DNA of 20,000 nt, taken from Malassezia furfur (lineage: Eukaryota). How positions within the stretch are numbered: position 1 is the first letter of the stretch; each line of letters begins with the position of its first letter. A program made the translations under genes and the position numbers. The notes beneath the pieces were generated by a model. That model did not search any database. It was not told the DNA's origin and saw only the letters and a program-made list of their open reading frames with translations. The DNA is taken from the NCBI GenBank assembly GCA_052055015.1, contig JBQJIT010000018.1. One strand, 5' to 3'. This document shows, in pieces, positions 524-20,000 of the stretch.

Positions 524-1322
524 CTACCAAAGTTTAATGTACACGATGAACAGGAACAGCAGCGCGATTGCACCGAGGCTGCGTGAGGGCGAAAGGAAAC
601 GTACGGTGCATACTTGCGGATCATGGCGTCCACGTTGATCTTGCGTGCGGCACGGCGGTACTTAAGCGACTCGTCGCGCAGCGACGACGAGAGCGAAGAC
701 ATATCTGGGTGAGCACGGCCTGCGCGGGGCATACGTACGGTCGAGACTATCGCCGCGCCATAGCAAATCTTCCATGTTTTTGGTCATAATCTTTTGCACA
801 TCCTGCAGATCCTCGTTGAGCCGGTCGAGGTTCGAGTGTGTGACGCTCTCGGCCGTGCGCGAATCCGCGTAGAGGCGCTTGGTGCGCTGCATAAAGGTGT
901 CTGGCGTGAGTGTCGTGCCACCTACCGAACCCGACAAATGCATACGGCCGCAGGTTGCGCTGTTGCACCTGGTGCCCGTAGGAGAGCGCAAATTCCTTCG
1001 CGAGCTCGTCGAGGTAGCTGAACGCAAGCTTGCGTGGGTACGATTTGTCGGTGATCGTCAGGTATACGACCGACCTTGGGTCGCCCGGCGGTGGCTGAAC
1101 AAGGTAGCTGTGTGAGTGTGCGTGGGTGCGCGCGACGTACTGCAGCGCCATCGGCCCGCTCTCGATCGTGCACCGCGTCTCGGACATAGGCGTAAGCTTC
1201 CGGAAAATTGTCTTGGCCTGCTGCTTATACTTGGTCAGGTCAATGCCCGTCTGATCATCGTCGACGCTCTGCGCGAGCGGGAGCGCGTCCGAGACGCGCA
1301 CGACCTGCGTGGAGCGCACCAT
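524..1322 (-). CDS. SEC22: ER-Golgi R-SNARE Sec22 (longin + SNARE + C-terminal TM), about 226 aa. Exons 1322-1141, 1107-926, 900-739, 704-605, 578-524.
   Basis: MVRSTQVVRVSDALPLAQSVDD..., YPRKLAFSYLDEL, NLRPYAFVGF|DTFMQRTKRLY, DVQKIMTKNMEDLLWRGDSLD, SLKYRRAARKIN, and TM LGAIALLFLFIVYIKLW*. Four GT-AG introns (33, 25, 34, 26 nt) join the ORF fragments into a 681-nt CDS. Confidence 0.95.
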
Positions 1323-1388
1323 GACGATCCGGAGGCAGGCGCGTGGAGGGTCACGTGGCGCAAGGCGCGGCGGCTCGCCGTGACCACC

Positions 1389-2649
1389 ATGGACGCCAGT
1401 GCACCGCAGGAGGCCGATGGCCCGCCGCCGTTCGCCCGGCTGATTCTGGACTTGCGTGGCGTGTACTTTGTGATTGAGCGCGAAACGCTGATGAGCTTGC
1501 CCGAGTCCATCCTGCTTTGTCTCTTTCCCAACGGCCTCGTCCTTCCCGAGGGCGGGGCGGACGAGACGGGCGACACGACGATGCAAGACGAGCACGTATA
1601 CCACGTCGACGTACGTGCCACGCTGACGCCAGTTTGATGCGAATTGCTTGCAATACGTCCTCTCCTTCTTCCGGCGCGCCCAGGAGTACTTCTACGGCAC
1701 CGACAAGGCACCCGGTGTCTACCGCGGCATGGGCCGCGGTGCCAACATCCTTGACTTTGCCGATCCCATGCAGGGTACGGCTGGGTTTGGCAACCACTTT
1801 TATCTCCCGCTCTTCCACAAGCAGGCGATCATCGTGCTGCGCGAGGAGCTCGAATATTTCACGATCGCGCCAAAAGGCATGGCGCGCCCGGCCGTCGCGC
1901 GCCCGCCGGTGGGCAACCGCCCACCACAGGCCTCGGAGGAGTTTGCGCATCTTAAGGATGCATGCGGCGACGTGCTGCTGCAGCGCCGCCAGATCTTTAC
2001 GGCGCTTCAGCGCAACATCAACAAGGAGAACAACGTCGCCGAGCAGCACCTCATTGACATGCTGTGCATGAGCGGCTTCGAGCAGGACGACCTGTGGGGC
2101 TACCGCGCGCGCGAGGCGAACCGGTGCAGTATCACCAGTACTGCCATGGTGCTCCTCAAGACGGGCGTCACGCACCGCGGCGAGCTCCCCGAGGGCCGCG
2201 CCCCGCATCAGCCGGCGCCGCGCAAGCCGATCGGCGTGGAGCGTGCGGGGGTGGACCCAGACGCAGGGCTTGAGCCGCTGGACACGCACGTCTCCGAAGA
2301 GCAGCTCGGCGAGTGGGTCGACGATGCACAGGGTGGCTCGCTGCGCGTAAACCAGCACCAGCTGAACACCACGCAAAAGCTGCTCCTCTTTTGGCGCAAA
2401 CCTGCGGTACGTGCACACACTGACCACAGCGGAAATGCTGGTGGGACGGCATTGATCTGGTGGTGCCGAGCGACGGCATCGCGACCAAGCCGCAGCCCGC
2501 GCCGTCCTTGGCGACGCTCGGCACCCTCTCGCCGCAGGAGCGCACGTGGCTCGAGCAGGGCAAAGGCCTGCTCGTCCGCGTGTGGGTCCGCCGGATCTGG
2601 ACGCTCGAAGTGAGCTTGGTACGTGGGCGTGGGCTGACCACAGATTTGA
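1389..2649 (+). CDS. WHI2: Whi2-family BTB/POZ growth-regulation protein (phosphatase activator), about 396 aa. Exons 1389-1610, 1633-2406, 2430-2618, 2644-2649.
   Basis: LDLRGVYFVIERETLMSLPESILLCLFPNG, VD|FDANCLQYVL, IIVLREELEYFTI, EQHLIDMLCMSGF, KLLLFWRKPA|RKCWW and the Whi2-type ending RRIWTLEVSL|I*. Introns of 22, 23 and 25 nt, all GTACGT...CTGAC-NN-CAG. Confidence 0.92.
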
Positions 2650-3448: not shown

Positions 3449-6400
3449 CTACGACGGCGCCGCGCGCGCAAGGCGCCGGGCGCGGCGCGCCTCGTAGGCG
3501 TCGCGCACCGCAGCGCGGATCACCTCGATGCTGCGGCTGCCCTCTTCCACGTTGGCCATCGCCGTGCGGAGGAGGGCGCGGACCTGGTCGGCGGTCCAGA
3601 CGAGATTATAAGATGTGCTGTAGTGCGCCGTACTCGGGTCGAACCCGGGCTGCACCGCGTTGGGAAACAGGGGGCAGTACACCAGCCGTACGTCGGGGAC
3701 GCGGCCCGCGGGCTTGCCGCGGCGCAGGCGCCACCCATCGAAGCGCTGCGCAAGGCGCGCCTCGTACTCGTTGCGGATGCGCTCCGCCTCGTCCTGCAAC
3801 GCCTCGGGGGTGTGCTCGGTGCCCTGCTCCTTGCGCTGCTGCGCCTGCGCCGCATTCGCCTCGCCCGCACGCTTCGCAGCCTCGTTGGCGGCTTGGGTCT
3901 CAGGTTGGATTTCGACGTGCAGGCCACACTCGCTCGCAAACTCGTGCAGGCGCTCGACAGCCGCCCCGAGCTTCACGTCGGAGGACGAGTCGAAGGAGAT
4001 CAGCACGTCGGCGTCGCGCTCGTCGCGTGCCAGCACGTGGTTCGGCAGGTTGTTCGACAGGCCGCTGTCCATGAGACGCAGGCGCTTGGAGTGCTCCCAC
4101 GACCACTCGTGCCGCGGCGCAGGTCCCCCATCGGACGGCGCCGCTGCGCCCTCGGCGGAGGGCCCAGGGACGTCGTAGAGCGGCGCCATGAATGTCTCGG
4201 GGTCGTAGTTTGACATGGACGAGGTGATCGACGCATCGCTGCCCCGCCTTTGCCGCAGCGGGTTCTCGACCGAGATGTCGCCGAGTTTGGGGATCGTGGG
4301 CATTTGGATGTCGGGCAGCTTGGGCATGTGCGGCAGTTGGACGTGGGGGAGCTTGGTGAGGAACGCGTTGAAGGGCGTAGCAGCGTCCGGTGCGGCTTCT
4401 GGCGTGGGAGCGTCCGGTGTGACGTCCGACGTCGCCTTGTCGGGCGTCGCATGGTCGGGCGCCGCCTTCTCCGGGCTGGCAGCCTCGGGCGCCGCCGCCG
4501 CCGCCGCCTCCGTTGGCGCGCCTTGGGGCGCCTCGTGCACACTCTCGCCCAGCTCCTTGAGCGGCGGCGCGAACAGCGCCGGCGCCGGCCGCTCGCCGTT
4601 GCCGGGCCGTGCGTTGAGCCCGTCGCTGGTGAGGGTACCGCCGAGGCGCGCGTCGCCGAGCGCCGGCCCCGATTGCATGGCAACCGCCTGTGCGGTCGGG
4701 TCGCTGTACGGCTGGTCGACGATGCTTGTCGGGCGCGTGCGTGGCTCGGCGGGCGGGTGCTGCCCCTCCGGCGGGCGCGCGGCGCTCGGCGCGGTGCTGG
4801 CAGCCGGCATCGAGATCGCGCGGTCGTCCATGCCGTGGCCATAGAACGGGTTGGGCTCGTCGGCGGCGCGGATCGGATTGCCCCAGCGCTTCTCCCAGCG
4901 CTTCATCTTGATAAACTCGTTCACCCAGCTGAGCAACGTCGACATGACCGTGCCCTCGGGAATCGATGCGAGCATCGTCGAGATGTAGGCGGTGAGCGGC
5001 CCCGCAGGTGCGCCGGTGCACTGCCCCACGATCATCGCGAGGTTCACCTCCGGCTCGCGCTTGAGCGACACGCCGTTCTTAAAGCGGCGGCCGTAGCTCC
5101 ACGTCGGGATCCACGCGCCGACATTGCGCGAGCCCAGCTCCAGCGGGCTGATCTCGTACCAGTCGTACCCGCCGCCGACGAGCTGCCGCGCCTCGTACGC
5201 GTCCGCATGCGGCGCGGTGCCCTGGGCGACCGCGGCGGGGTGCGGCGCCGGCGGCTGCTCGTGCGACACGGGCGCCGTCTGGCCCTTCTGCGGGCGCGGG
5301 CGCCACACGCGGCGCACGCCTGTGAGGATCGGTAGCGGCGCAGCGGCCTCGTGGAGCTTGGCGCGCTCCCACACCTTGGACCACTGGAACGAGGTGCGGC
5401 GCATCCCCTCGCTCGGCATATACTCGCCGTGCTCCGTGCTCTCGTGCACGGGCGTCTCCGGGCGCTTGGCGTCCGGGCCATGGTACGAGCAGTCCGTGCC
5501 AAACAGCGCGAGGGGGCGCGGCAGATACTGGTAGGAGAGCACGAGCGTCGCGTAAAAGTCCATCAGGCGGCACGCCACGCTGCGCCCGCGCGATTTGCGC
5601 AGCAGCGGGCCCAGCAGGTAGTAGATGCCGTTCTGGCTGCGCGCGACGCGGTCCATCGCCTGCACGCTCATCGGGTGCGCCTCCTCGTGCGCCATGGCGA
5701 GCAGGTGCGCAATCAGCACGTCGGTCGAGCAAGAGGCGATCGTGTACAGCGCCGCAATCGTCCAGCAGCTCCCGCTCACGCCCGACGCCCACGTCGTGCA
5801 CTGCCAGAGGCCCGTGTTCTCCGCCTCCTTGATGAAGCCCGCGTACGCATACATCGCGCGATAGCCGCCGCCCGAGCCGCCGATCGCGATGAGCGGCACG
5901 TCGTCGGGGTGCACGTACGTGCCCTCGGGCAGCCGCAGAAAGTGCGCGAGCGCATTGTTGCCCTCGGACGAGATGCGCCGCCGCCGCTGCGCTATGAACG
6001 CGACCTCGTCATCGTGCAGCTCCGGCGAACAGCGCACCTTGGCGTCCCACTCGAGCTCAGGATAGGTCGCCGTGTCCTGAGTGTCCTGGTCGACCTGCGC
6101 GGCGAGCTGCGACAGGTCCGACCACCGCCACCGCCATCGCTGCAGCCGCGGCAGCGCCGTGAGCCGCGGCGGCGGCGGCAGATTGAGTGGTAGCTGGGGG
6201 GGTGGGAAGAGATAGGGGAAGCGCCGCTCCTGCCACCACGGCGTAGACGGCGCCTCCGCCTCGGCCGCCGTGGCTCCAGGTGCCGCATCGGATTCGGCTG
6301 CGCCATCGCCACGCCGCGTCGCGTTGGCGAGCAACTGCTGCATCCGGCCCCACGACGTCGCGCCGTGCCCGCCCTCGGTCGACTCATACCACACCCAGTG

Positions 6401-6523
6401 CCCACCCGGTCGCAGCCGCGACGAGATGGGGCGCGCCGCAAACAGCGTCACGAGCGTACAGATCAAGTAGCACTTGATGTACAAGTACGCCGGTGACGAT
6501 CGGATCCGGTGCAGCCAGGCCAT
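3449..6523 (-). CDS. Cytosolic phospholipase A2 / lysophospholipase (PLAc domain) family protein with an N-terminal hydrophobic anchor, about 1024 aa, apparently intronless
   Basis: Single ORF; first ATG gives MAWLHRIRSS. Gly-rich oxyanion motif IAIGGSGGGYRAM, nucleophile motif SGVSGSCW, APLPILTGVR, WYEISPLELG, WIPTWSYGRRF, and catalytic-Asp motif LMDSG. Hydrophobic stretch AYLYIKCYLICTLVTLFAA near the N-terminus. Confidence 0.88.
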   Translation of the reverse strand: MAWLHRIRSSPAYLYIKCYLICTLVTLFAARPISSRLRPGGHWVWYESTEGGHGATSWGRMQQLLANATRRGDGAAESDAAPGATAAEAEAPSTPWWQERRFPYLFPPPQLPLNLPPPPRLTALPRLQRWRWRWSDLSQLAAQVDQDTQDTATYPELEWDAKVRCSPELHDDEVAFIAQRRRRISSEGNNALAHFLRLPEGTYVHPDDVPLIAIGGSGGGYRAMYAYAGFIKEAENTGLWQCTTWASGVSGSCWTIAALYTIASCSTDVLIAHLLAMAHEEAHPMSVQAMDRVARSQNGIYYLLGPLLRKSRGRSVACRLMDFYATLVLSYQYLPRPLALFGTDCSYHGPDAKRPETPVHESTEHGEYMPSEGMRRTSFQWSKVWERAKLHEAAAPLPILTGVRRVWRPRPQKGQTAPVSHEQPPAPHPAAVAQGTAPHADAYEARQLVGGGYDWYEISPLELGSRNVGAWIPTWSYGRRFKNGVSLKREPEVNLAMIVGQCTGAPAGPLTAYISTMLASIPEGTVMSTLLSWVNEFIKMKRWEKRWGNPIRAADEPNPFYGHGMDDRAISMPAASTAPSAARPPEGQHPPAEPRTRPTSIVDQPYSDPTAQAVAMQSGPALGDARLGGTLTSDGLNARPGNGERPAPALFAPPLKELGESVHEAPQGAPTEAAAAAAPEAASPEKAAPDHATPDKATSDVTPDAPTPEAAPDAATPFNAFLTKLPHVQLPHMPKLPDIQMPTIPKLGDISVENPLRQRRGSDASITSSMSNYDPETFMAPLYDVPGPSAEGAAAPSDGGPAPRHEWSWEHSKRLRLMDSGLSNNLPNHVLARDERDADVLISFDSSSDVKLGAAVERLHEFASECGLHVEIQPETQAANEAAKRAGEANAAQAQQRKEQGTEHTPEALQDEAERIRNEYEARLAQRFDGWRLRRGKPAGRVPDVRLVYCPLFPNAVQPGFDPSTAHYSTSYNLVWTADQVRALLRTAMANVEEGSRSIEVIRAAVRDAYEARRARRLARAAPS

Positions 6524-6586
6524 CGTGCGTCGGCGCGAAGGCCACGGCGCATTAGGCGCACGCCCACGTGCAGGCACAGTGGAGGC

Positions 6587-10641: not shown

Positions 10642-10712
10642 GCTTGAGTATATGAGATATGCAATTATTTTTAATTCTTCGCGGCATTGTACCTTACTTA
10701 CCTTCTGACAAA

Positions 10713-13234
10713 ATGGCCCTGCGAGCAGTGCGCGGACTGCGGTCTGCTATGCCGACGCGCCGTCTGAGTGTGCCTGTTGTACAGGTGACGCGTGCGAGCT
10801 CGACGTTTGCGACGCGCCGCCCCGCCGTGCGAAGCGCGCGCGTGTGTGCCTGGATGGGTGCATCCCACACTCGCTTGCTCGCGACCGAGGCGGATAGTGC
10901 GACGGGCAATGTGACGCCTGTCGTGAGTGAGGCCGACATCGCGCGGCTGCTGCGCCAGCGCAATGTGGGTATCAGCGCACACATCGACAGCGGGAAGACC
11001 ACGCTGACCGAGCGTGTGCTGTACTACACGGGCCGCATCAAGGACATCCACGAAGTGCGTGGGCGCGACGAGGTCGGTGCCAAGATGGACAGCATGGACC
11101 TCGAGCGTGAAAAGGGTATTACCATCCAGTCTGCAGCTACCTACTGTAACTGGAAGGCGACACCTCCGACCGAGACGAGCAACGTTACCGGCGACGCGGC
11201 GCTCGACACCGAGTCGACCAGCAAGAAAGAAGACTTCCACATCAACATCATTGACACGCCCGGCCACGTCGACTTCACCATCGAGGTCGAGCGTGCTCTG
11301 CGTGTCCTGGACGGTGCTGTGCTTGTGCTTTGTGCCGTCTCGGGTGTGCAGTCGCAGACCATCACGGTGGATCGCCAGATGCGCCGCTACAATGTGCCGC
11401 GCCTGAGTTTCATTAACAAGATGGATCGCGCCGGTGCGAACCCGTGGCGTGTCGTGGAGCAAATCCGCACCAAGCTGCGCATGCCGGCCGCGGCACTTCA
11501 GGTGCCCATAGCGTCCGAGGAGAGCCTCGACGGTCTCGTGGACCTGGTGCGCTGGAAGGCCGTGTACAACGAGGGCACCAAGGGTAACGTCGTGCGCGAG
11601 ACCGACGAGATCCCTGCTGAGGTGCTGGAGCTCGCCAAGGAGAAGCGTACTGAGTTGATCGAGCAGCTCGCAGATGTGGACGACGAGATGGCCGAGATCT
11701 TCATCGAGGAGCGCGAGCCTACTATTGCCGAGCTGGCGGCCGCCATCCGCCGTGCGACGGTGGCGTGCCGTTTCTCGCCCGTGTTCATGGGGACGGCCAT
11801 CAAGAACAAGGGTGTGCAGGCGCTGCTGGATGGTATGTGTGCCTACCTGCCGAACCCTATGGAGGCGCCTGCGATCGCCAACGACACGCGGCGTGCCAAG
11901 CAGATTGCGCAGCAGGCTACTGAGGAGGGCCAGGCCAACGACGAGATTGTGTCGTCCGCCCAGGCCGGCTCCGAGGTGCAGCTGGTGCCCGCCAGCGACG
12001 CGCCCCTGGTGGGTCTGGCGTTCAAGCTGGAAGAGAGCCGCTTCGGCCAGCTCACCTACATGCGTGTGTACCAGGGCCAGCTACGTCGGGGTGGTGTGAT
12101 TTTCAACTCGCGTACCGGCAAGAAGGTCAAGGTGCCGCGTCTGGTCCGCATGCACTCGAACGACATGGAGGACGTCAATGAGATCGGGCCCGGCGAGATC
12201 TGCGCCATGTTCGGTGTGGAGTGCTCGTCCGGCGACACCTTCACGGACGGCAGCACGTCGCTGTCCATGTCGGCCATGTTTGTGCCCGACCCGGTCATTT
12301 CGCTGTCCCTTGCTCCCGAGGGCAAAGACGGCTCGCAGAACTTCTCGCGTGCGCTGAACCGCTTCCAGAAGGAGGACCCTACGTTCCGTGTCCACGTCGA
12401 CAGTGAGTCGGGCGAGACGATCATCTCGGGCATGGGTGAGCTGCACCTGGAGATTTATGTGGAGCGCATGCGCCGTGAATACAATGTGCCGTGCAAGACG
12501 GGCAAGCCGCGTGTCGCCTTCCGTGAGACGATCGGCCAGCCTGCCAAGTTCAACTACACCCACAAGAAGCAGACGGGTGGTGCCGGTCAGTTTGGTCGTG
12601 TGATTGGCTACATCGAGCCGATGCGGATGGACGAGGAGACGGGCAAGGACACAGCGTTTGAGAACAGCGTTGTGGGTGGCAATATCCCCTCGGGCTACAT
12701 CCCTGCCTGTGAAAAGGGCTTCTACGATGCGCTCGAGAAGGGCTCGCTTGCGGGGTACCCCGTGTGCGGTGTCCGTTTCGTGCTGGAGGATGGTGCGGCG
12801 CACAGCGTCGACTCGTCCGAACTGGCATTCCGTATCGCCACGGTCGCGGCCTTCCGCGAGGCGTTCAACAATGCGCAGCCCATGATCCTCGAGCCCAAGA
12901 TGACCGTCGAGGTGGTGGCCCCGGTGGAGTTCCAGGGTGCGGTCATTGGCGCGCTCAACCAGCGCAAGGGCACTATCGAGGACACCGAGGTCCGCGAGGA
13001 CGAGTTCACGATCCGTGCCGAGGTCAGCTTGAACGACATGTTTGGCTATTCGAGCCAGCGTACGTATATTCTCGCTCACCACAGTCCGCGGCCTCACGCA
13101 GGGCAAGGGCGAGTTCTCTATGGAGTACAAGAAGCACGAGCCTGTCATGCCCAACATCCAGGCGGAGATGCAGAGTGGTGTGTACCTCCTTCCTTGCTGA
13201 CGCAGCCTATCGCAAGAGCCAAGAAAAGAAGTAG
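10713..13234 (+). CDS. MEF1: Mitochondrial translation elongation factor G1, about 822 aa. Exons 10713-13059, 13085-13177, 13206-13234.
   Basis: Arg-rich presequence, then [70 protein letters not shown]. Introns 13060-13084 (25 nt) and 13178-13205 (28 nt) restore [19 protein letters not shown]...AYRKSQEKK*. Confidence 0.97.
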
Positions 13235-13457
13235 CCGGAATAGCACCACTTATGAAACGGACTCCATACGATGCTTGCGAAATGGCATGCATGCCGACGT
13301 GACATAAGCTTGCTTGTGTGTCTCGGCACTAGCACATGGCCATACTGCCCTGGAGCGGCCATCGTCTGTCTCGGCTAACCAAAAATACAATCTGTCAAAT
13401 TGGGACTATTTGGCCCAAATCTTTCAGGTGGAGGAAGGGTGTGCACGGACCACATCC

Positions 13458-14893
13458 TCACGCTTGCAGCAGCAGGGACGGTACCGCCATATCGCTGCTC
13501 GATTCGTCGAAATAGGGGTCAAACTCGGCCTTGTTGAACTGTGCCGGAGCGGGCGATGCATGTGACGACCCCGCCGCACCTGCTATCGACCCGAGCACCG
13601 CAAAGCGCTCGGCCAAGGTAGGGTAGGACTGGAAATAGGCGTTGTATAGTGGGTCGGCAAAGAGCGGCGCATCGGCCGCCAGGTACAGCTTGAGCAGTGC
13701 ATTCTCAAAGCACACTTTCAGGTCCGCACCTGTCGCGAAACTCGATGCCTCGTAGTCGACCCAGTCATTCACCAACTCATCCTCCACAACCATCTGTGCA
13801 CACCGCACAGCGAAGCGACTGGGGGTCAGCAAGTCCATACGTACCGATCCTTTGCACACACGGAGCGTCGCGACAGAAAGTTGATCTGCAGCGTTGCGGC
13901 CACCAGCAGCGGCCGCAAGAGGAGCGCCGCCAGCGCACTGCCAACAACGAGCGGCGGCGTATCGATCACGGCCGGCATGCCCTGCCCCGCTGCGCCAAAT
14001 CCAAATGCACGCAGGAACAGAGGGTTGCGGTTGACCAGCTGCACAAAAAGCACCGTAAAGACGAGATTAAATGCGAAGACGGTGCGCTGGGCGAACATCG
14101 ACACCTTGGTGCTGCACTCGTACGTGCGGAGCGCCTCGGCCTCCTCCCTGGTCAGCTGGAGGAGCTCCTCGGGGTGCATATAGCCCTTTTCGTCACTGTC
14201 GGCGGGCGATGCGGCAGTCGACGCCTCGATCGGCGCGATGCATTGCGTTGAAGGCATTGAAGGCATGAGCGGCACGTTGATAAAGAAGACCACCATCGGG
14301 ATCACGCATGCGGCAGCCGTATCGGCCACTGCGACTGCACCTGACTGCAGTGGCCATGCGCCGAGCTGCGTCGTGCTAGCGACATGCACTGCGCCCAGCA
14401 CGAAGATCGCCGCTACTGTCGCGCGATCGAGGAAGAAGGCGGCAAGCGACGGCCGCCTCGCGAGGCCGACGCGCCAACACTCTTCGATGTACATGGGTGT
14501 GCGCGTCACCGAGCGTAGGAGCTGGAGCAGCGCGAGCCACACGAGGCTCTGCAGGAAGGCGGCATGTGGCTGATCCAGGCGGACCAGGCACCCTGCCCAG
14601 TTCCATGCGATTGGCAGGAGACCGAACTGCACAGAGCACACGATGGTGTTGAGCACGATGTTGGCGCGCCCCATCTGGGCTGTAAAGGTGCGCTGGAAGC
14701 GCTGGGCGCTGAACCGGAACTCGTCTGGGGTAACGCTGGACGTGAGTACGACAGGAACGGCCTTGGACCGGCTCAAACGCCGCTGCCGTACAAGCAGGAC
14801 GACCTTCATGATCCAGTCCAGTCCTGCTATCAGCACGACCAAGGTGGCCCACGACGCGGCATCGCGCCCCTGCATCGCCTCGCTCCACGGCAT
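13458..14893 (-). CDS. Divergent Ste24/peptidase M48-like membrane protein lacking catalytic residues (candidate pseudo-peptidase), about 469 aa. Exons 14893-13845 and 13818-13458.
   Basis: Co-linear similarity to the neighbouring STE24: VRQRRL vs VRQLRL, FLRAFGF vs LYRAFGF, DPLYNAYFQSYPTLAERF vs DSLYSAYHHSHPTLTERL. HELGH is replaced by YECST. 26-nt intron at 13819-13844. The start may be 14893 or the next Met (MQGRD). Confidence 0.82.
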
Positions 14894-14966
14894 GATAGCT
14901 CCGAGAGGGCCTTTGGGCCCCGCTGGGTGCTCTTACATAATAATAGGCTACCGTACTGCCTACTGC

Positions 14967-16605
14967 CTAATGCGTCTTTTTGGTGGAGGCCACCCGGTCG
15001 AGCGCCACGAGCCGCTCGGTGAGCGTGGGGTGAGAATGGTGGTAGGCGCTGTACAGAGAATCGTGGTACATAGACGAAAGACTGTGTGAGCATGTGCGCA
15101 ACGTACTTGTGTATGTGCAGCTTGACGAGCGAGCGCTTGAGGAGCTCTGTGTACGGCTCTTGCTCCTCGGGCAGCGCATCCCCAATCGTCTCAGAGGGCA
15201 GGCGGTGCGCAGGCACCTCGCTCAGGCGGTCGACCCAGTCGACCACCGTCGCGCTTGGCTGTACATCGTCGCTGTCACCGCCCTTGGCCTCAATCAGACG
15301 CATCGCCTCGATCTCGGCAGCCGTTCTGGGCGCGCGCGGAAGCTCGGCGGCAAAGCTGGGTTAGGCACTTGCCCACGTACCGGTCAGCGGCGTACTCCAT
15401 ACGGCGCACAGCCGCATTGATACCGAAGCGGAGCACCGCGTCAGTGGGGTTCAGAACCAACTGGAACAGCTCCAGGCCGACCATCACGGGCAGGTACGGC
15501 TCCACGACCAGCGCGCCAGGCGCCACGCGCTGCACAAAGCCAAACGCACGGTACAGCGAGGCGTTGTGGATGAACAGCGTGAAGAGCGAGAGCATGAGCA
15601 CGAGGTTGAGCTGCGACATAAGCACGAGCTTCACCGGGTCCGAGTGTGCCCAGTGTCCCAGCTCGTGCGCCAGCACCGCCTCGATCTCTTCGGGCGTCGA
15701 CTTCTCAATGAGCGTGTCGTAGATGACTGGGTCAGCTAGCGCGAGAGCAACATACCGATGTGCTTGCCGCCGCCGGGCACAATGCCGTAAAAGTACGCAT
15801 TCGAGTGCGAGCTGCGCTTGCTCCCGTCGATCACGTACAGGTGCTTGAGCGGGAAGTGCAGCGCACTCGCAAGCGCCACGACGCGGTCGCGCAGGGCGCC
15901 CTCGGAGAGCGGCGTGAGCTTGTTAAAGAACGGTTGGATGACGAGCGGGTAGAGCACGCTGCCGAACAGGATGACCACCGTGAAGAGCAGCATGACGTAC
16001 ACGACAAAGTAGTCTCCCGCCCAGCGGATCACCCACACGGCGAGCATCACGAGCGGCGCACCGATGGCGGCGCCGACGACCCACCCCTTGATGGTGTCGC
16101 TGACGAACGTCGCGAGCGTGAGCTTGTTGAACCCGTGGCGCTCCTCAACGACAAAGTTGCGGTACAGCCCGAGCGGGATGCCCACCACCTCGTGCATTGC
16201 CGAGTTCACAATGACCCACATCGCCGACTTGGTCACCTCGTTCGCCGGCGCACCGACGGCGGTGAGCAGGTCGCTGGCCCACACCCACGCAAGCGCGTAG
16301 AAATCGAAGTAGACGGCGGCGAGGTTGTATGCATGCGCAATCGCGTCCGAGACCAGCGCAAAGCGCGCCTTGTCGCGGCCGTATGCCTGGCTTTTGGTAA
16401 AGGTGTCGAGCGACACGTGGGGTACGAGCGCCTTGGGCGGCATCGTCTTGTCGTACAGGCGCAACTGGCGCACCGCTACGTACGTCTCGAACAGGTACAC
16501 GCCCCACAGCAGGCAGATCACCAGCTGCTTCCAGGGGATCGTGGGCGTGTCGAGGTACGCGGCGGCGCCCTTAATTTCGCTCGCGGCGTGCGCGAGCCAG
16601 GTCAT
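14967..16605 (-). CDS. STE24: CAAX prenyl protease Ste24 (peptidase M48), about 519 aa. Exons 16605-15756, 15726-15381, 15355-15107, 15081-14967.
   Basis: SQAYGRDKARF, FVVEERHGFNK, LYVIDGSKRSSHSNAYFYG, KHI|VIYDTL, EIEAVLAHELGHW (HExxH), RRMEYAADR|F, YSAYHHSHPTLTERL, and a C-terminal KKTH (KKxx ER-retrieval motif). Introns of 29, 25 and 25 nt. Confidence 0.97.
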
Positions 16606-16625
16606 GGTGGTATGGGTTTAGTCAG

Positions 16626-18968: not shown

Positions 18969-20000
18969 ATGCGGATCGAGGAGCTGATTCTCGACGGCTT
19001 CAAGAGGTGCGTGGGCGTGTGCCACTAACGCAGCTATCCCGTGCGTACGCATGTGCGTGGCTTCGACCCGAGCTTCAACGCGATCACGGGGCTGAATGGC
19101 AGCGGGAAGAGCAACATTCTCGACGCCATCTGCTTCGTGCTGGGCCTCACGAACCTCAGCTCGGTGCGCGCGTCGAACATCCAGGATCTGATCTACAAGC
19201 GTGGCCAGGCGGGCGTGACCAAGGCGTCGGTCACGATCGTCTTTGACAATGCGGACCGCGAGCGGTCGCCCGTGTCGTTTGAGAACTGCGCGACGATCAC
19301 TGTCACGCGCCAGATCGCGATGGGCGGCGTGTCCAAGTACCTGATCAACGGGCACAAGGCGACGCAGCAGGCGGTGCAGAACATGTTCCAGAGCGTCCAG
19401 CTGAACATCAACAACCCCAACTTCCTCATCATGCAGGGCAAAATCACCAAGGTGCTCAACATGAAGCCTGCCGAGGTGCTGTCGATGATCGAGGAGGCGG
19501 CGGGCACGCGCATGTTTGAGGAGCGCAAGGAGCGCGCGTTCCGCACCATGGCGAAGAAGGACCAAAAGGTGCGCGAGATCACCGCGCTCCTCCAGGAGGA
19601 GATCAAGCCCAAGCTGGACCGCCTGCGCGACGAAAAGCGCGCGTTCCTCGAGTACCAAAAGGCCTCGACCGAGCTGGAGCGTGCCACGCGCCTGCACAAG
19701 GCGTACGAGTGGCACACGCTGCAGCGCAAGCTCGCGCAGCGCACCAACGAGGGTGCGGCGCAGGCCAAGGCGCGCCTCGCCGCGTACGCCAGCGACGTCG
19801 CGGCGTTCACGCGGCAGCTCGGCGCGCTCGACGACGAGCTGCACAAGCTGCGTGGCCAGCGCGATGCCCAGCTTGCGGCCGACGGCGAGCAGGACGCGCT
19901 CGTGCAGCGCACCAAGGCGCTTGCGCACGAGCTGGTCGAGGCGACGACGCAGCGCGACTTCCGGCGCACGGCGCGCGACGAGGAGGCCGCGCACGCCGCC
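18969..20000 (+). CDS. SMC2: Condensin subunit Smc2, 5' part (runs off the right edge). Exons 18969-19006 and 19034->20000.
   Basis: Not in the ORF track as a whole. [50 protein letters not shown]...[23 protein letters not shown]...[25 protein letters not shown]...[11 protein letters not shown]. 27-nt intron at 19007-19033 (GTGCGT...CTAACGCAG). Confidence 0.96.

Follow-up and report, generated by a model that had tools for sequence, protein, structure and literature searches.

Ste24 and ZMPSTE24 (MEROPS family M48A; structures 4IL3, 4AW6, 5SYT, 2YPT and 6BH8) are membrane metallopeptidases whose active site is given as HEXXH, EXXA, an Asn and a His (PMC7804941, Table 7). Some of the roles attributed to these proteins may not involve proteolysis, namely the unclogging of translocons, the control of membrane-protein topology and the restriction of viruses, and the empty barrel may contribute to them. 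A preprint reports that catalytically dead ZMPSTE24 E336A traps and stabilises a topological isoform of IFITM3 (10.64898/2026.02.27.708584), and the antiviral role of ZMPSTE24 is described as not requiring its protease activity (PMC5379977). Here we analyse a stretch of 20,000 nucleotides from Malassezia furfur (contig JBQJIT010000018.1 of assembly GCA_052055015.1; hereafter, the window), in which an intact STE24 gene is followed on the same strand by a second, highly diverged gene that we call the paralog. We propose, with a probability of roughly 70%, that the paralog is a pseudoprotease derived from Ste24.

A first inspection of the letters of the window (the original prediction) had singled out this gene as a candidate Ste24 pseudoprotease and had not recognised it as a described gene. 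The full-text literature, with most subscription journals outside its scope, likewise gave no description of it, or of any catalytically dead Ste24 paralog or M48A non-peptidase homologue; the matches to 'pseudoprotease' concern derlins. A natural copy of Ste24 that lacks the zinc site and the cap would, if kept across a genus of yeasts, be a ready-made separation-of-function allele.

The paralog is a full-length, faintly similar copy of STE24

The paralog occupies 13458..14893 on the minus strand, the strand of STE24 upstream of it, and the 73 bp between the STE24 stop codon (14969-14967) and the paralog ATG span 14894..14966. The gene encodes 469 aa in two exons: exon 1 runs from the ATG at 14893 to 13845, and exon 2 from 13818 to 13458, with the TGA stop codon at 13460-13458. 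The intron between them (13819..13844) is 26 nt long, has the form GTACGT..CTGAC..CAG and interrupts the frame in phase 2 after ..AKD-R. An uninterrupted gene of ~469 aa had been proposed, which is accurate for the spliced gene and not for the raw frame, as the latter hits a stop seven codons into the intron and is open only once the intron is removed. The codon signature fits the coding frame, with a G+C content at third codon positions (GC3) of 0.76 and a relative synonymous codon usage (RSCU) correlation of 0.84 with two neighbouring genes; the wrong frames reach correlations of 0.13-0.38.

Pairwise searches gave modest matches: BLASTP aligned paralog exon 1 with STE24 exon 1 at 24% identity (E 4e-5) and with STE24 exon 2 at 30% identity (E 3e-5). 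Profile methods were far clearer. With 110 basidiomycete STE24 sequences we built a local hidden Markov model (HMM), which matched the spliced paralog with an E-value of 5e-25 (search space of 1) and also matched 9/9 members of the paralog family, a set made up of the window's protein, seven relatives and the short form P0013. Comparison of the paralog family with the STE24 family by hhalign returned a probability of 99.6% (E 8.8e-25, 23% identity) over 414 collinear columns, which pair paralog residues 11-428 with STE24 residues 21-512. In addition, the sole intron of the paralog lies at the same codon position and in the same phase as STE24 intron 2 (15380-15356, after ..AAD-R), indicating that the copy was made from DNA and not from mRNA. 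We considered an origin as a retrocopy and rejected it because of this common intron.

Other searches came up short or empty. Pfam Peptidase_M48_N (PF16491) scored 25.8 bits on the paralog against a gathering cut-off of 27 (E 1.1e-5), and it was found in 6/6 scanned family members at E <= 0.01 (best 3.1e-7); Peptidase_M48 (PF01435) gave no match at E <= 1 in either paralog exon. A sequence search of solved structures in the Protein Data Bank with exon 1 found no Ste24 and just a chance match of 42 residues (E 0.26), and a search of the ESM Atlas gave no usable match. Between the two coding sequences, blastn detected no DNA-level similarity (best E 0.077), which implies that the duplication is old and that there has been no recent gene conversion. 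Our claim of homology is therefore based on the profile-profile comparison, the intron position and the structure, and not on Pfam thresholds.

Together, these comparisons of sequence indicate that the downstream gene is a copy of Ste24, though the similarity is faint. The tandem duplicate on the same strand that the original prediction had described is thus borne out by hhalign, the HMM and the common intron, and its coordinates and motif changes all proved correct when the DNA was read and translated directly. The alignment it had drawn by eye along the whole length was right as to the extent of the homology; the similarity itself is weak, and it is lacking at the DNA level. Of the two Pfam profiles that it had named, the N-terminal one is marginal and the peptidase one is absent.

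The catalytic residues are gone

In place of the HELGH of Ste24 the paralog has YECST (14108..14122), so that His, Glu and His are changed to Tyr, Glu and Thr. Where Ste24 has its third zinc ligand, the Glu of the ExxA motif on transmembrane helix 7 (TM7), the paralog has Val345 (13859..13861; RRSVCAKD vs RRMEYAAD), and the conserved C-terminal His of Ste24 (SHP) is replaced by Tyr415 (SYP; 13623..13625). The strand region of Ste24 (LYVIDGSKRSSHSNAYFYG...IVIYDTL), whose HSNAYF strand bears the active-site Asn, has given way to a poorly conserved linker of ~40 residues (residues ~207-247; 14153..14275) that is modelled with low confidence. These losses, together with the absence of the KKxx tail from the C-terminus, are as originally described.

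We then compared the same columns across the family set of eight sequences, comprising the window's protein and seven relatives. The His, Glu and His columns read YYQHHRFS, EEKQSTEE and TSEEFPPP, the ligand-Glu column reads VVVVEDSC, and the active-site Asn column reads SSA-DIII. A complete HExxH plus Glu occurs in 0/8 sequences. The Glu of HExxH, which had been reported as kept, is kept in the window's paralog and not family-wide. The start of the helix flanking the former zinc site, QLT.EE.EA, is conserved in the family, and the invariant family columns contain no His or Cys. When we took the 100 columns that are >= 95% conserved in 58 STE24 sequences, 66 of them were retained in at most 1/8 paralogs.

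A protein with no HExxH, no third-ligand Glu and no Asn strand cannot be a zinc peptidase. As read from its sequence, then, the paralog is derived from an active protease whose catalytic residues have gone.

A Ste24-type barrel is predicted

Hydropathy analysis of the paralog indicated seven hydrophobic segments. An AlphaFold2 model of exon 1 (349 aa), for which 8 paralogs and 58 STE24 sequences were aligned, had a mean predicted local distance difference test score (pLDDT) of 80.7 and a predicted template modelling score of 0.77, and it consisted of seven long helices with a disordered stretch at residues 211-238 (pLDDT < 50). When this model was searched with Foldseek, the ten best matches were all Ste24p or ZMPSTE24 (4IL3_B, E 3e-4, template modelling score 0.54). 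VIA-align superposed it on 4IL3, 5SYT, 6BH8, 2YPT and 4AW6 with Z 15.2-16.0 over 269-279 residues, at a root-mean-square deviation of 4.2-4.9 A, a fold match that is not independent, given the STE24 sequences used to compute the model; the next-best fold reached only Z 7.0. The superposition on Ste24/ZMPSTE24 suggested in the original prediction thus came out in its favour, with that qualification.

The elements retained from Ste24 are the TM1-loop-TM2 segment, the RAFGF loop, the TM7 proline and the C-terminal DPLYxAY...L.ER helix region. On the model, the paralog is predicted to keep the N-out barrel of seven transmembrane helices that characterises Ste24.

The C-terminus differs. Here the paralog carries a new tail of 40 residues, acidic and Ser-rich, with a conserved end motif (Y/C)(F/L)DES.SD.AVPS..L. 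In the window's protein the motif reads DESSSDMAVPSLLLQA (13461..13508) and stands in place of the KKxx tail; it was also found in the relatives P0011 and P0013 (DESDSDIAVPSIMLLP). In its general appearance, the end motif resembles a short linear motif for sorting, phosphorylation or partner binding.

Relatives of the paralog show signs of constraint

An exhaustive phmmer search over 1.84 billion representatives found seven relatives of the paralog, with identities of 79, 35, 33, 29 and 32% plus two partial forms. A word-index search added a 99% copy (P0007), and a profile search added two further relatives. All of the relatives are presumably from Malassezia, and we take the gene to be present genus-wide. 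Searches for orthologous DNA were negative: P0001 and P0136 against metagenome contigs gave pattern matches and no relative, and P0136 against genome contigs gave none.

The relatives extend down to ~23% identity, compared with 56-82% among the STE24s of the group. Those reaching the N-terminus all start at the equivalent position and keep the frame. At the end of exon 1, 5/7 relatives (P0008, P0009, P0011, P0135 and P0136) read 'D-x-Y-V', which is what translation of the GTACGT at the conserved 5' splice site yields. Twenty-two columns are invariant among the eight family sequences, and at some of these the family has settled on a residue of its own where STE24 has another fixed one: Ala63 in place of Gln, Arg65 in place of Tyr and Thr159 in place of Lys (8/8 each). 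Invariant residues that differ from those of STE24 are a signature of new constraint and not of none. The alignment with the 79% relative P0008 has 349 columns, of which 275 are identical, 71 are mismatched and 3 form a single gap; conservation was unevenly spread, with identity per 35-residue block ranging from 51% in the linker, the least conserved part, to 94% at residues 36-70. The replacements were also milder than neutral, with a mean BLOSUM62 score of -0.20 vs -0.59, and only 13/1000 neutral simulations, run to the divergence of this relative, reached the observed value. Retention, family-specific invariants and uneven conservation suggest that the gene is under selection. The expectation of the original prediction that the gene would prove maintained, and not freshly decaying, agrees with the persistence of the frame, the family-specific invariants and, in most relatives, the splice site from 79% down to ~23% identity.

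Several observations weigh against this reading. Beyond the dependence of the fold match on STE24 sequences, a paralog-only model of the full-length relative P0011 was poor (pLDDT 55.7); as a weak cross-check, its first ten places were still taken by Ste24/ZMPSTE24 (E 0.02-0.19, probability 0.97-1.00). Only 12 of the 100 STE24-conserved columns are retained in at least 6/8 paralogs. Replacements in the paralog are more radical than those in STE24 (mean BLOSUM62 -0.20 vs +0.55 to +0.91), and tree paths of the paralogs amount to 2.8-6.5 substitutions per site vs ~1.0 for STE24, suggesting that the paralog evolves ~3-6 times faster if the lineages correspond. Its GC3 is lower (0.76 vs 0.87 for STE24), as is its codon-usage fit (0.84 vs 0.93). 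In P0013 (273 aa) the entire central part is missing, with the conserved N-terminal ~100 residues joined almost directly to the conserved C-terminal ~100, and P0012 lacks the TM6-TM7 loop; these in-frame losses mean that parts of the barrel may be dispensable or that the gene is decaying in some lineages. Finally, long open frames arise readily in a genome of 63% G+C, and the window contains many spurious ones.

The faster and more radical change, the lower GC3, the deletions in P0012 and P0013 and the spurious long open reading frames (ORFs) would all fit a slowly decaying or unexpressed relic, which lost its function long ago and in which the frame survives as high G+C makes stops rare. If the paralog is unexpressed, it is merely a slowly fading duplicate. 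We judge this to be unlikely. Down to ~23% identity, relatives still share protein sequence, start codon, frame and, for the most part, the 5' splice site with the paralog, the family has invariant residues of its own, conservation is very uneven, and only 59/1000 neutral simulations stayed stop-free even at the smallest divergence.

As to P0012 and P0013 themselves, in-frame deletions, splice variants or assembly artefacts could each explain the missing parts. As to rates, the nearest non-self relative is 80-82% identical for STE24 exon 1 and 79% for the paralog; if these nearest relatives come from one species, the two proteins have been changing about equally fast over this stretch of time.

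The duplication is old

In a maximum-likelihood tree of 29 rows, the paralogs formed a single clade (support 100/100) on a very long stem (4.3), nested in the STE24 of Ustilaginomycotina (93/81) and weakly placed outside the Malassezia STE24 clade (88/88). Constraining the paralogs and Malassezia STE24 to group together cost 2.8 log-likelihood units and was not rejected (approximately unbiased test, p 0.27). A motif of the C-terminal-domain insert in Malassezia STE24, [DA]W[VIL][DES], was present in 4/5 Malassezia-clade STE24 having both anchor motifs and in 0/63 other basidiomycete STE24. It also occurs in the window's paralog and, as TDWIDYD, in P0011 and P0013. That the paralog and Malassezia STE24 have this motif in common suggests that the duplication happened on the Malassezia stem. 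The best explanation of the sequence data is that the paralog is an old, DNA-level tandem duplicate of STE24 that arose in the Malassezia lineage or just before.

A protein that may hold instead of cut

We favour the reading of the paralog as a Ste24-derived pseudoprotease; on the sequence evidence it is probably a working, non-cutting protein that related yeasts have kept. Because diverged relatives have kept it and its family has its own invariant residues, the protein would be expected to bind and not to cleave. The barrel would then have been kept for binding something, so that the protein holds instead of cutting, and its likeliest form would be a membrane chamber for membrane-associated or translocating polypeptide clients. 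In this respect the paralog may be a natural counterpart of the engineered, catalytically dead ZMPSTE24 'trap' mutant, and the new acidic C-terminal motif may confer a different localisation or partner. The paralog would then be expressed and bind clients, and it may have a cellular location of its own. The most specific form of this proposal is that Malassezia carry a dedicated, genus-wide 'natural trap' Ste24, a cap-less chamber in which clients are held while the tail redirects location or partner, and that this would be the first pseudoprotease on an M48A barrel. We offer this version tentatively and regard it as possible, though doubtful. If true, nature itself would have divided the roles of Ste24/ZMPSTE24 that need catalysis from those that do not.

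Inactive paralogs are known to act as regulators of the active enzymes from which they derive, and the paralog could be a partner of this prozyme-like or inhibitory kind, pairing with its active neighbour or competing for the same clients. Its tandem arrangement with STE24, on one strand and at a distance of 73 bp, and the predicted fold in common with Ste24 fit such a role. Adjacency alone links the two proteins, however, and close spacing is ordinary here, since unrelated genes in the same window are separated by 20 bp. Having lost the KKxx tail for retrieval to the endoplasmic reticulum (ER), the paralog may not share a compartment with Ste24, and the solved structures of Ste24 and ZMPSTE24 are described as consisting of one chain each. 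A complex prediction for M. psittaci Ste24 (P0017) and paralog exon 1, run without controls, scored 0.00, which is evidence neither way. We consider a regulatory partnership improbable.

The chamber might instead have been reused for lipid handling, as a fenestrated, cap-less barrel that moves or senses lipids. Malassezia depend on external lipids, the model keeps the barrel while the cytosolic cap elements are lost, and a phospholipase-B-like ORF in the same window provides context only; fold searches showed no similarity to known lipid transporters or scramblases, and we find this idea very hard to favour. We reject the idea that the paralog still cuts peptides through an unconventional active site, as the Glu kept in the YECST of the window's copy might hint, because none of the four ligand and catalytic columns has a His, Cys or acidic residue conserved 8/8, the invariant columns contain neither His nor Cys, and the substrate-positioning strand region is gone.

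The intact STE24 and the surrounding genes

The intact STE24, an M48A CAAX prenyl protease, lies at 14967..16605 and encodes 519 aa ending in KKTH. Its four exons (16605-15756, 15726-15381, 15355-15107 and 15081-14967), read directly and translated, are separated by introns of 29, 25 and 25 nt (15727-15755, 15356-15380 and 15082-15106), each of the form GTAYGT...CAG. The protein carries the zinc-binding and catalytic motif HELGH (15653..15667) as well as RRMEYAAD and HHSHPTLTERL, and Pfam detects Peptidase_M48_N (E 5e-55) and Peptidase_M48 (E 1e-16). Among the named matches to exon 1 are the Ste24 of Malassezia psittaci (82% identity), M. equina (60%) and M. pachydermatis (58%); after Malassezia come other Ustilaginomycotina and then Agaricomycotina, an order of matches that places the window in a Malassezia-type yeast. 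Exon 3 (15109-15354) encodes a lineage-specific insert in the C-terminal domain of Malassezia STE24, of ~35-50 residues and with the motif ..T-V-x-D-W-V-D/E...

All four introns of the two genes carry strong GTAYGT, CTRAC and CAG signals. At just 25-29 nt they come close to the minimum length for spliceosomal introns, and gene callers easily overlook introns of this size. Indeed, the public models of named Malassezia STE24 (P0017, P0024 and P0027) stop at the last 25-nt intron or jump over it, ending in ..KLHIQK, in ..KLQIHN with a jump to HPTLPERW, or in read-through. As a result, the conserved C-terminal LYSAYHHSHPTL region is partly or wholly missing from them, apparently through misannotation. 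With introns so short and scores below Pfam thresholds, the paralog is easily missed or mis-modelled in annotation.

STE24 and the paralog belong to a minus-strand series that begins with a DNA ligase I gene (Pfam; stop 16628-16626), from whose stop codon the STE24 ATG is separated by 20 bp (16606-16625). Packing of same-strand genes across this spacer and the one at 14894-14966 is very dense, so promoters and terminators must overlap the adjacent genes, or transcripts read through.

The G+C content of the window is 58-71%, and the gene features are eukaryotic. Pfam identified a mitochondrial-type EF-G (10659-13307, plus strand), a longin-domain SNARE (747-1604, minus strand) and a protein with an SMC N-terminal domain (19041-19998, plus strand). 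The neighbourhood is one of ordinary housekeeping genes without mobile elements. A 1042-aa open frame (3449-6577, minus strand) in the most G+C-rich part of the window (~70%) matches the lysophospholipase PLA2_B profile over just its first 69 positions (E 5e-19) and is probably one phospholipase B exon within a longer, spurious frame.

Comparison with known systems

The closest known system is Ste24/ZMPSTE24 itself. The paralog resembles it in full-length homology, intron position and the modelled seven-helix barrel, and conserves TM1-loop-TM2, the RAFGF loop, the TM7 Pro and DxLYxAY..L.ER. In contrast to Ste24, it is without HExxH, the third-ligand Glu, the Asn strand region, the C-terminal His and KKxx.

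ZMPSTE24 E336A, as far as its published description goes, shares with the paralog a Ste24-type barrel without catalysis, and by analogy the mutant may serve as a working model for the paralog. The two differ in the extent of the change: a single residue is altered in the mutant, in which zinc, cap and an ER or nuclear-envelope location are preserved, whereas in the natural paralog the entire zinc site has disappeared along with the strand domain.

The rhomboid pseudoproteases (derlins such as Dfm1, and iRhoms) are described as intramembrane-protease folds that have lost catalysis and bind clients in ER quality control, which is the kind of behaviour we suggest here. They belong to an unrelated fold and family, and they are ancient and universal in eukaryotes, whereas the paralog is apparently confined to one fungal lineage. 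It is also comparable to the MEROPS 'non-peptidase homologues' of metallopeptidase families, being a peptidase-family homologue without active-site residues. Pseudoproteases are thus already known, and the paralog would be a new example of the reuse of an intramembrane protease fold; what would be new is a pseudoprotease on the M48A barrel that has been kept across a genus.

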